Assembly: GCA_951406725.2 (NCBI GenBank)
Contig: OX597826.1
Location: 8,618,001 to 8,682,000 of the forward strand
Direction of reading: 5' to 3'
Source of the DNA: Octopus vulgaris
Lineage: Eukaryota
DNA: 64,000 bases
The first letter of the stretch is position 1; each line of letters begins with the position of its first letter. The notes beneath the pieces were generated by a model. That model was not told the DNA's origin. It searched no databases and was given only the letters and a program-made list of their open reading frames with translations. The position numbers were made by a program, and so were the translations under genes. This document shows positions 48,527-56,084 of this stretch, in pieces.

Positions 48527-49138
48527 AGGAGATATACACACCACAAAGAAATCATCAAGCTCAATAACGATCTGTTAAGCAACAACTACCCCAAAAGTAT
48601 AATATCCACTCCAATTATGAAGAAGAGAGAGGATGAGGTTCATAAATTGTCCACTGTCTGTCTACCCTATGTGAAAGGCCTCTCCGAAAAGATACAAAAG
48701 ATATGCGGCCCATATGACATCAGGACAATATTCAAGAGTAATACAACACTTCACAAATATTTCCTTCGAGTAAAACCACCAATAGAAGGGAATATGACCA
48801 AAGACTGCGTGTACTCCATTCCATGCAACTGTGGTAAGTTATACAAAGGCGAAACATGCCGCCCCCTCAGAATAAGGGTTGACGAACATCGCAAAGCTGT
48901 GACATGGGGAGATATTGATAAATCGAGCATCACTGATCATGTATGGAAAAATAGAGACCACCTGCCTCTGTAGGATGAAGTTAAAATAATAGACAGAGAA
49001 CACCACTGGAAAATAAGAAAACTAGAAGAAGCAGCGCATATGCTAGGACACAACAACCTCCTAAGCAGACCGAGTGCAGATATGAGCAGCATATGGGAAC
49101 CGGTATTAAGGGAGGATAGGGGAATATTAGATTTATAA
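48527..49138 (+). pseudogene. Penelope/Poseidon-type RT thumb plus GIY-YIG, 5'-truncated, one TGG>TAG stop at 48971
   Basis: NNYPK..CLPYVKGLSEKI..CVYSIPCNCGKLYKGETCRPLRIRVDEH..SSITDHVW..*DEVKIIDRE..RKLEEA..IWEPVL, ending TAA at 49136-49138. Confidence 0.92.
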
Positions 49139-49169
49139 GCGCTAAAATTCACTCCATAATTGCCCACGA

Positions 49170-49252
49170 ACATAGTGGTTAAGAGCGTAGTGGTTAAGAG
49201 CGCGAGCTACTAACTCCAAGATTCCGAGTTCGATTCCAAGCAGTAACCTGAA
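49170..49252 (+). promoter_or_regulatory. tRNA-derived Pol III A/B-box module inside the PLE 3' region
   Basis: gcgtagtggttaagagc (A box/D arm) and gagttcgattcc (B box), ~30 nt after the ORF stop. Confidence 0.75.
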
Positions 49253-49317
49253 CAATAATAATTATAATAATAACAATAATAATAACATAGAAAAAATGCC
49301 TTAGGAATGAGAACCCA

Positions 49318-49363
49318 ATACACTTGAAGAAGGCTGGAGGGTATATCAGCCGAAACATTGTTT
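49318..49363 (+). ncRNA. Degenerate hammerhead at the PLE 3' end
   Basis: cac-tTGAAGA-a-ggctg..cagcc-GAAA-CaTT-gt; intact version at 55299-55344. Confidence 0.65.
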
Positions 49364-50359
49364 TAACAACAAACAAGATGTAAATAATGTATTATTATTA
49401 TTATTATTATTATTATTATTATTATTATTATAGAGCAGCGATCTGGCAGAGTTGTTAGCATGCCGAGCAAAATACTTAGCGGCATTTCTTCCGTCCTTAC
49501 GCTCTGAGTTCAAATCCTGCCGAGGTCGATTTTGCCTTTCATCCTTTCGGAGTCGATGATAAAATAAGTACTAGTTGAACATTGGGTTTTGATGTAATTG
49601 ACTTACTCCCTCCCCCCGAAATTGCTGGCCTTGTGCCAAAATTTAAAATCATTATTATATTTCTCTCACTCTTTCTTCCTACTTCTGCCATAAATCAGAG
49701 GAACTATGGTGTAACCCACTAGGGTGTGGTAAAACTTTCAGACCCTAGTCTAGATTCCGAATCCTCTGTAACCCAGGATGGTTCAGTTCTCCACCCGTTA
49801 AAAGCCACCGTTTACGGAATGAGGATAACAACGTAGCTTTCGCGCCCGTGCAACCGCCTGTCTATCGCGTGGGGTGGGTGGATCTTCAGGTTGCCACACA
49901 CATTCTTAGTAGCTTAGAATAGGCTATTCTTTGTGGCTAATGGCGTGAGTCCTGATTGGAAGAAGAAGAAGAAGAAGAAGAAGAAGAAGAAGAAGAAGAA
50001 GAAGAAGAAGAAGAAGAAGAAGAAGAAGAAGAAGAAGAAGAAGAAGAAGAAGAAGAAGAAGAAGAAGAAGAAGAAGACAACAGTGACAAGCAAGAAAATA
50101 TCATTGAAACATATACAACCTTTAACGCCATCACCGCCAACGTATACTTAAATATAATAACATAGTGCGCACCGATCTTGCAAATGAAGAGAAAGCGGGT
50201 TCACAAACACATATAGAAAATAAGAGAATATTTGTCAGAAAGATAAACTAAAAATCCAAGCAAAAATCACTTTACCAAAAAATGGTAGAATGATTTATCA
50301 AACACACAGCAAAAATTTGGAGTAAGGAACGCAAAGGAGAACTATATTATTCAAATGTC

Positions 50360-54400: not shown

Positions 54401-55045
54401 TAAACACAGAGGAGACAAACAAGGACAGACAGACGGATTAAGTCGATTATATCGACCCCAGTGAATAACTGGTACTTATTTAATCGACCCCGAGAGGATG
54501 AAAGGCAAAGTCGACCTCAGCGGAATTTGAACTCAGAACGTAACAGCAGACGAAATACGGCTACGCATTTTGCCCGGCGTGCTAACGTTTCTGCCAGCTC
54601 GCCATGCATACACACACACACACGCACACGCAAGCTCACATATACAAACAAACATGCATGTACATATTTATGACTATATACCTTATACATACGAACATGC
54701 ATTCACATACACACACACATATATGTACATATATATACTCATGTATAAGTTTGTACATATATATATATATGTATGTTTATATTGTGTATGTGTGTACATC
54801 ATACATATATACATACACACATATGCACACATTCACACACGCATAGTCATATACATATGTATACTTTTGTCAGATCGAACAGACCTATGATAAAATGGTC
54901 TGTTCCAGCCGTGTCTATCAAGTCTCTTCGTCTATCCAAGGTTAGATAGTCCAATATAATACAGTTCTATATTTAAGAGATGAGGAATTATGTACATTAT
55001 TTAATCATTTACATTCGACGGATATTTGTCCTCATCTTGTTTGTT

Positions 55046-55091
55046 AACACAACGTTTCGGCTGATATACCCGCCAGCGTTCTTCAGGTGTC
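55046..55091 (-). ncRNA. Minimal hammerhead ribozyme downstream of the tRNA module
   Basis: Reverse strand reads gacac-CTGAAGA-acgctg..cagcc-GAAA-CGTT-gtgtt. Confidence 0.72.
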
Positions 55092-55298
55092 TTGGGGAAA
55101 TCTCGAACCTGGGTTCTCATTCCTAAGGTATTTTTCGATGTTATAATTATTGTTGTTGTTGTTGTTGTTGTTCAGGTCACTGCTTGGAATCGAACTCGGA
55201 ATCTTGGGATTAGTAGCCCGCGCTCTTAACCACTACGCCATATGCAGAACATCGAAAAATATCTTTGGAATGAGAACCCAGGTTTGAATTTTCCCCAA

Positions 55299-55344
55299 GG
55301 CACCTGAAGAAGGCTGGAGAGTATATCAGCCGAAACGTTGTGTT
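55299..55344 (+). ncRNA. Minimal hammerhead ribozyme (AACGTT stem III, GUU site)
   Basis: ggcac-CTGAAGA-a-ggctg-gagagtatat-cagcc-GAAA-CGTT-gtgtt. Confidence 0.78.
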
Positions 55345-56084
55345 AACAACAAACAAGATGAGGACAAATATCAGTCGAACATAAATAATGTAAATAATGT
55401 TTAGTTCAGTATGTGTTGCTTATTTTTTAAAGATGATTGAATGATATTTGGCTGTTACTTTTAGAAGGTTGATCTTCTATATAAAGGAAGCCGTTGTTGA
55501 CTCACCAGTAATGCGTGTTGTCTCTGTCGGTCCGTTTGCATTTGGTAGAAATAGATTTTGAACTTAGAACGTTGTTCGAGCCCAATCTCAGTATATCCAA
55601 GGGTACTATTTAAGCCTTGTTCAAAATTGCATTTATTCATTTCATCACTCTAGTACTGCGATTATCATTTAAAAATTTTATACGAAGGTCAGTTAAATTG
55701 ACTAATTCTACTGCAATATAATAGGTGCAGTAAGGTGGCGAGCTGGCAGAATCATTAGAATGCCGGACAAAATGCTTAGTGGCATTTCGTCCGTCTTCAC
55801 CTTCTGAGTTCAAATTCCGGTGAGGTCGACATTGCTCTTCTTCCCTTTGGGGTCGATTAAATGCGCACCAATTTCACACTGGAGTCAAGGTACTAGATTT
55901 ACCCTCTCGCCAAAACTGCTGTCCTTCTGCCAAAGTATGAAACCAGTATAATAGTCAGAGTAATGCCAAATGTTTATGAAGTTCGACTCTTAGTCACGCG
56001 ATCCCGGTTTCGTTCCTATCTCGTAGGATCTTGAGCAAATATAATTTTCAGTAACTTCGAGTAAAACTGGGTAGACAGAAAGTA

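Follow-up and report, generated by a model that had tools for sequence, protein, structure and literature searches.

By the usual division, autonomous retrotransposons use RNA polymerase II (Pol II), or Pol I in the case of R2, and RNA polymerase III (Pol III) serves only short non-coding passengers. Ohshima and Okada reportedly described three tRNA SINEs from octopus in 1994, OK, OR1 and OR2, with tRNA-derived heads in an octopus-type genome. OR2 is a CORE SINE (PMC4758252), and the octopus family that we report here, the body of which is the terminal repeat (pLTR) of a Penelope/Poseidon-type element (PLE), is set apart from it by description only. The Penelope/Poseidon PLEs described to date (Anolis PAc, PMC11167929; Craig et al., PMC8557442) are similar to the octopus family in having a single RT ORF with a C-terminal GIY-YIG domain, a hammerhead pLTR that overlaps the ORF start, inverted 5′-truncated arms, a 30-40 bp tail on one end and two internal RT start sites. 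In the Poseidon element PAc the tail is bounded by these two start sites, priming takes place on both target strands, and insertion in vitro can proceed without ribozyme cleavage (Frangieh et al., PMC11167929). By comparison with the available portions of these accounts (PMC11167929, PMC8557442), an A/B-box head at the start of the pLTR, a sharp pile-up of 5′ ends and a lack of T4 runs (four successive T) on the sense strand are found only in the octopus family.

Three further groups share one or more of these features. The Schistosoma SMalpha/Sjalpha repeats (PMC6765202) also have a Pol III-type promoter adjoining a hammerhead, but are non-coding tandem repeats freed by cleavage, each monomer having its promoter at the 3′ end; the octopus module, unlike these, belongs to a coding element as its pLTR, and its copies are uncut at the ribozyme. 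The TRIMp3 elements Cassandra, Helenus and Ajax (Kojima 2024, PMC10886601) likewise have a terminal repeat with a small-RNA-derived Pol III promoter that a SINE insertion may have supplied, yet they are LTR elements that do not exceed 1.3 kb and are non-autonomous; their autonomous partners must, according to the sections available, use Pol II. Related to PLE pLTRs, too, are the non-LTR retrozymes of animals (bioRxiv 10.64898/2026.07.22.740005), non-coding repeats with a type I hammerhead, which differ in forming head-to-tail tandem arrays; the terms tRNA, Pol III, promoter and octopus are absent from the accessible text of that preprint, just as ribozymes and Pol III are unmentioned in the accessible text of an octopus repeat annotation paper (PMC13282606). 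The literature searched, which lay outside Repbase, Dfam and subscription papers, contains no description of a tRNA or Pol III head on a PLE, and the family may well sit in a repeat library under a Penelope or SINE label with its anatomy unnoted.

The family unit and its copies in the window

The family unit, derived from long copies, is a 2643 nt (2.64 kb) PLE of the Penelope/Poseidon type. Numbering from the first G of the tRNA-like head (+1..75, sense strand), it consists of the head, an (AAT)n spacer directly 3′ of it, an AUG at +107, a hammerhead at +136..181 (core from +141, cut site after +176), a tail extending up to +262 and an ORF up to about +2612, then a short 3′ UTR and the next head. 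The head, the (AAY)n tract and the minimal hammerhead are the pLTR of this family, and the arrangement pLTR-ORF-pLTR is present in copies L279 and L281. At a further locus, L349, there is a true tandem junction in which the end of the ORF, a whole pLTR and the ORF start follow one another. The single ORF, an 838-codon majority frame, has RT motifs and C-terminal GIY-YIG motifs, which we take to be DKG, YVDD and VY..YKG/CCHH. Pfam finds RVT_1 above cut-off on the longer copy L185 and returns no match for the EN part of the family frame or for the ORF piece in the window. In a similarity listing an Anolis sagrei protein has 40% amino acid identity over 99% of the query, and the closest protein relatives (ENA) are at 60-72%. 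The family thus has the single RT and C-terminal GIY-YIG ORF of EN+ PLEs, with the type assigned from the similarity listing, as well as their partial-tandem pLTR, inverted arms and one-end tail.

Genome-wide counts refer to a 2.8-Gb, 227-contig assembly, in which a head 20-mer has 5148 exact matches; together with exact-match rates of 10/40 and 20/57 this suggests 15,000-20,000 arms with a tRNA head. Sampled copies diverge by about 6-8% from the majority sequence and none of them is both intact and full length. A search of the same genome for a second PLE family, to serve as control, returned this Penelope/Poseidon-type family at 30/30 loci, among them a truncated older relative with 84% identity (L320:1484-2947). 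One metagenome scan was without matches and a later one gave 8 distant loci.

The head follows the ORF in 28/30 ORF-picked loci, the window copy included, and in the two exceptions it is either cut after 10 nt or lost by deletion. It is therefore not a stray or independent SINE insertion, and a tRNA module missing from most family copies, which the original prediction had named as evidence against itself, is not what we find. Of 92 heads, 79 continue into (AAT)n and the body of the pLTR. A strict A box is present in 113/160 arms and a B box in 104/167, as in the head of a tRNA-derived SINE, and the best match among 30 tRNA loci compared is tRNA-Arg(TCT) of the same genome, with 52/75 identities. 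The intact boxes and this match point to a tRNA origin, with tRNA-Arg(TCT) as the tentative source. The head does not have the cloverleaf of a functional tRNA gene: its acceptor and T stems are broken, neither ARAGORN nor Rfam detects a cloverleaf in it, and the fold z is +0.9. For the window, the whole 64-kb stretch of DNA that was analysed, ARAGORN reports no tRNA and Rfam only microsatellite matches among the best 150 of 578 listed; Rfam on 54900-55450 gives neither tRNA nor hammerhead. Other repeats often adjoin the (AAT)n spacer or break it up (11/92 arms; upstream of +76 in L065, L066 and L071). These three loci have in common a 3′ end that looks like that of a LINE, presumably of the R4/Dong type, so that arms starting at the spacer may be split copies.

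The minimal type I hammerhead is defined by a CUGANGA/GAAA/UH core with an extra base between positions 9 and 10.1, a G10.1-C11.1 pair and a palindromic 15.2-16.2 (Cervera and de la Pena 2014, PMC4209133), and every feature of the minimal PLE hammerheads in the available part of that paper is found in the family hammerhead. Its majority letters agree with the consensus at all core positions, the core is intact in 69/134 arms, and stems I and II are predicted to fold. A dimer fold, considered as support for dimer cleavage, was discarded; in it stems I and II are paired and the short stem III is unpaired.

The window contains three pieces of the family. The first had been predicted to run, at 48527-49392, from the end of an RT/GIY-YIG ORF through a tRNA-like head and (AAY)n to a hammerhead, and this order is borne out, the ORF part being 94% identical to the family. 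Copy 1 is a decayed, 5′-truncated PLE end on the plus strand. At its 5′ junction lies an inverted ORF piece of 38 nt (48498..48535, minus strand; 89% identical by blastn to +2233..2270 of the unit), followed by the 5′-truncated 3′ part of the ORF at 48534..49138, comprising the end of the RT region and the GIY-YIG endonuclease, domain labels that rest on motifs in the family frame and on RVT_1 in L185. This part has 78% amino acid identity to copy L186, with an in-frame stop at 48971-48973 ahead of the natural one at 49136-49138. The tRNA-like A and B boxes had both been predicted; in the head (49168..49250) the B box is intact (49226-49237) and the A box is scrambled by deletion/duplication. 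After the (AAY)n spacer (49253..49290) the predicted hammerhead is there as a remnant (49318..49363), in which C3 of the core has become U and a deletion lies just 5′ of stem I, and is predicted to be inactive. A tail-less 3′ end (49364..49390) leads into an (ATT)n tract.

At 54958-55401 the original prediction had an ORF-less cassette capped by an inverted hammerhead terminus. Both parts of copy 2 exist, the cassette on the minus strand and the second arm on the plus strand. The main arm is a solo pLTR from +3 to +262 (54960..55246), with the A box at 55240-55230, the B box at 55197-55186, then (AAC)n, a hammerhead core from 55086 in which G10.1 is changed, and a tail that reaches +262. The second arm (55248..55400, +85..+235) is tail-less and has the only intact hammerhead core among the window copies (55304-55339). 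The 11-bp repeat that had been seen to flank this insertion is a probable target-site duplication (TSD; 54947..54957 and 55402..55412, plus strand, locus L001) of a length typical for the family, and its match of 9/11 letters (score 5) is weak when taken alone. As stated originally, TTTT is missing between head and ribozyme in both copy 1 and the ORF-less copy 2. The third terminal piece, expected near 16738-16880, is recovered as a pLTR fragment (+107..+228) at 16750..16867 on the minus strand, with a 3-nt deletion in the hammerhead core.

Two other kinds of sequence were seen nearby. A 237-codon frame at 50620-51333 (plus strand), for which Pfam has no match, resembles what we take to be the C-terminus of a CR1/L2-type LINE ORF2. 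SINE-like repeats, unrelated to the head by blastn, lie at 49436-49650, 55735-55950, 54390-54605 (minus strand) and 56208-56370, one of them presumably with a CORE-like segment.

Ends of the arms

In order to map 5′ ends we used the first 90 of 100 listed places of the head 20-mer (of 5148, all on contig C1), which gave 92 arms including a few duplicates or paired arms. Starts at -8..+8 were found for 63 arms (54 directly and 9 after discounting fold-back or chance letters), compared with 2.4-7.6 expected from neighbouring stop rates; the remainder start at +11..+30 (12), at -20/-26 (2) or beyond -60 (15). The T that the genomic unit has at -8 is absent in 11/11 arms mapped to -7, which places the limit of solo arms at about G(-6). 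Exact genome-wide 20-mer counts are 5148 at +30, 896 at -28, 943 at -194 and 462 at -439. Because the exact-match rates of these words differ (11, 6, 19 and 22 of 30, respectively) the step in counts at the head amounts to 3- to 6-fold. Selecting arms by the ribozyme gives the same pile-up of 5′ ends at the head.

Among ORF-bearing arms, for which 80 of 88 tail-to-ORF junctions were examined, 7/80 extend to +13 or beyond, and of these five stop at -8..+1 (one after a fold-back discount and one with a weak ORF match), one stops at +13 and one runs on upstream. Locus L271 is contiguous from +4 to +1170. A candidate starting at +8, L139, was dropped from this set as its arm ends at +264. Eight of 25 ORF-bearing arms have 5′ ends at +174..185 where 3.1 are expected (P 0.009, a cluster noticed post hoc), and solo arms show no such cluster (12/78, expected 9.8). 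The cluster would fit, weakly, with cleavage of long RNAs that carry two ribozymes. Further 5′-end clusters of ORF-bearing arms, at +215..221 and +243..254, are located beside the two RT start sites.

Arm 3′ ends are bimodal, at +223-237 and +254-262, a distribution which, by analogy, matches the two internal RT start sites of the Poseidon PLE (PMC11167929). Only one mapped arm ends near the cut (+176), at +175. Since the 3′ ends lie past the ribozyme site the ribozyme does not make them, contradicting the originally proposed ∼190-nt RNA with a 3′ end from hammerhead cleavage. With ends beyond the cut site and arms placed head-to-head, the copies are also distinct from SMalpha-like repeats or non-LTR retrozymes. 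Of 69 two-arm, tail-out insertions 62 have the tail on exactly one arm, and TSDs of 11-14 bp score at least 9 in 43 of the 69, as against 3/300 shuffled flank pairs. The ORF-less cassettes, with tail-out arms and TSDs, hence bear the PLE insertion signature, in keeping with the earlier suggestion that PLE enzymes copy them.

Transcription of the element

The 2643-nt majority unit has 0 T4 runs on its sense strand and 29 A4 runs. Shuffling of synonymous codons, a conservative test, leaves 2.9 T4 on average, with P(0)=0.028, and codons drawn by composition give a mean of 5.3, with P(0)=0.002. In 44 real copies there are 33 T4 in 68 kb (0.5 per kb), scattered such that no site is affected in more than 3/32 copies. 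By contrast, nine control frames from 8 unrelated PLE loci, all of other organisms, contain 51 T4 in 10.5 kb (4.8 per kb, ten times the rate of the real copies), with 49 expected by shuffling. The sense strand is T-poor (22%). RNA-seq data, in the form of two raw runs and two contig sets compared with one near-full copy, have symmetric mates and a depth that mirrors copy number; 75-78% of the raw reads run into unlike sequence, and neither the head nor the cut site shows a peak of starts or ends.

As most copies start at the head and the coding strand is free of T4, the element was likely copied by Pol III. We judge it slightly better than an even bet that the head is a Pol III promoter from which the short pLTR RNAs as well as the full-length RNA with the ORF were made, the polymerase being inferred from sequence. 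The original prediction of a Pol III start at the tRNA module thus stands as the best reading of the 5′ ends located there, and what it had overlooked is that the ORF-bearing unit starts at the same place and is, as a whole, without terminators. Pol III would start at around G(-6) to A(-2) and, as T4 is lacking, could traverse an entire unit and enter the pLTR that follows. With RT primed internally from both target strands, two tail-out arms (∼+235 and +262) would then be generated inside a TSD of 11-14 bp, and two-arm, one-tail, TSD-flanked insertions are the outcome expected of such priming. RT primed in the first pLTR would run off the 5′ end of the RNA after about 260 nt to leave a solo, SINE-like pLTR, and RT primed in the second would give ORF-bearing, mostly truncated copies. 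The ribozyme might cut mainly the long two-ribozyme RNAs, producing 5′ ends near +177 rather than 3′ ends. Translation of the uncapped RNA could proceed by cap-independent initiation, as in R2, or from a separate Pol II read-through RNA, both of which are possible.

The original prediction had instead envisaged a distinct SINE family that depends on the PLE. An independent SINE, mobilised in trans and with hammerhead cleavage forming the 3′ end of its RNA, would account for the excess of solo arms, since a count of ORF-less versus ORF-linked copies, called for at the outset, finds the former about 4-6 fold more numerous and starting at the head, and solo copies keep the boxes and could be re-transcribed. 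Their bimodal 3′ ends well beyond the cut site are at odds with it, as is PLE insertion in vitro without ribozyme cleavage (PMC11167929, the part available). Furthermore, none of 11 common variants differs between 102 solo and 66 ORF-linked arms (lowest Fisher P 0.09) and the three main haplotypes occur in both, so that there is no separate, non-autonomous SINE lineage of the kind that a tRNA-derived SINE would form; the solo cassette is the element's own pLTR. We regard an independent SINE as very improbable, although occasional re-mobilisation of solo copies in trans may occur. Only a little less improbable is that Pol III plays no part, the head being a fossil tRNA or SINE piece in the master copy and the 5′ pile-up a result of RT stalling or folding back at a GCCC-AC-GGGC hairpin, or of an RNase P-like cut of a Pol II RNA. 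Fold-back junctions centred on this hairpin are indeed common, but many ends at -5..+8 lack a fold-back, the acceptor and T stems are broken and the cloverleaf is missing, a cut at +1 by RNase P would remove the -2 to -6 positions that ends often include, and the lack of T4 would be left unexplained.

A more serious, if still unlikely, alternative has Pol III transcribing only short RNAs from the head, as the source of solo pLTRs, with mRNA and long templates made by Pol II, from a LINE-like pLTR promoter or by host read-through, and the T4 lack of the ORF a compositional chance. The promoter of Drosophila Penelope is internal, LINE-like and TATA-less (PMC2377424). Weighing against Pol III for the whole unit, the enzyme is considered to have too little processivity for autonomous elements (PMC10886601). 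Only 7 ORF-bearing arms reach the head, and one of these (L349) and every copy linked to the ORF 3′ end derive from RNA that started farther upstream, for which Pol II read-through could be the source as well. As for T4, the strict shuffle gives only P=0.028, the strand is T-poor and the control PLEs are from other organisms. Finally, translation has yet to be accounted for if the 2.9-kb RNA is an uncapped Pol III product, a problem that Pol II removes. Set against this, ORF-bearing arms also stop at the head, and T4 is ten times rarer in real copies than in the control PLEs.

Returning to Pol III transcription of the whole unit, the module probably promoted the autonomous element itself. We would give even chances to the complete picture of an autonomous, coding Pol III retrotransposon, in effect a LINE and a SINE paired within a single unit, that captured a tRNA-Arg-like promoter into its pLTR, purged all T4 from a 2.5-kb ORF and made tens of thousands of SINE-like solo repeats as a strong-stop by-product, with ribozyme cleavage confined to the long RNA that carries two ribozymes. 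If true, such an element would breach the division between Pol II and Pol III that PMC10886601, in the part available, states for LTR partners, its Pol III RNA would have to be translated independently of a cap, and it would show how a SINE can originate straight from the terminal repeat of the element that mobilises it. A compact promoter with known boxes also makes two open questions about PLEs testable, namely the RNA start site and the purpose of the pLTR ribozyme.

Several junctions bear on how RT behaves at the ends of its template. Perfect fold-back junctions at -7..+3, on a short palindrome at the start of the head, were found in L002, L003, L019, L125, L247 and L268, suggesting that run-off cDNA primes on itself. 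An arm at L139:1243-1481 ends at +372, inside the ORF, so that initiation by RT is also possible downstream of both main sites. Near the first of these sites a 9-nt unit is often repeated 2-3 times (L069, L075, L078, L079, L085 at +218..235, and window 55384-55400), which looks like RT realigning and re-copying and recalls telomerase.
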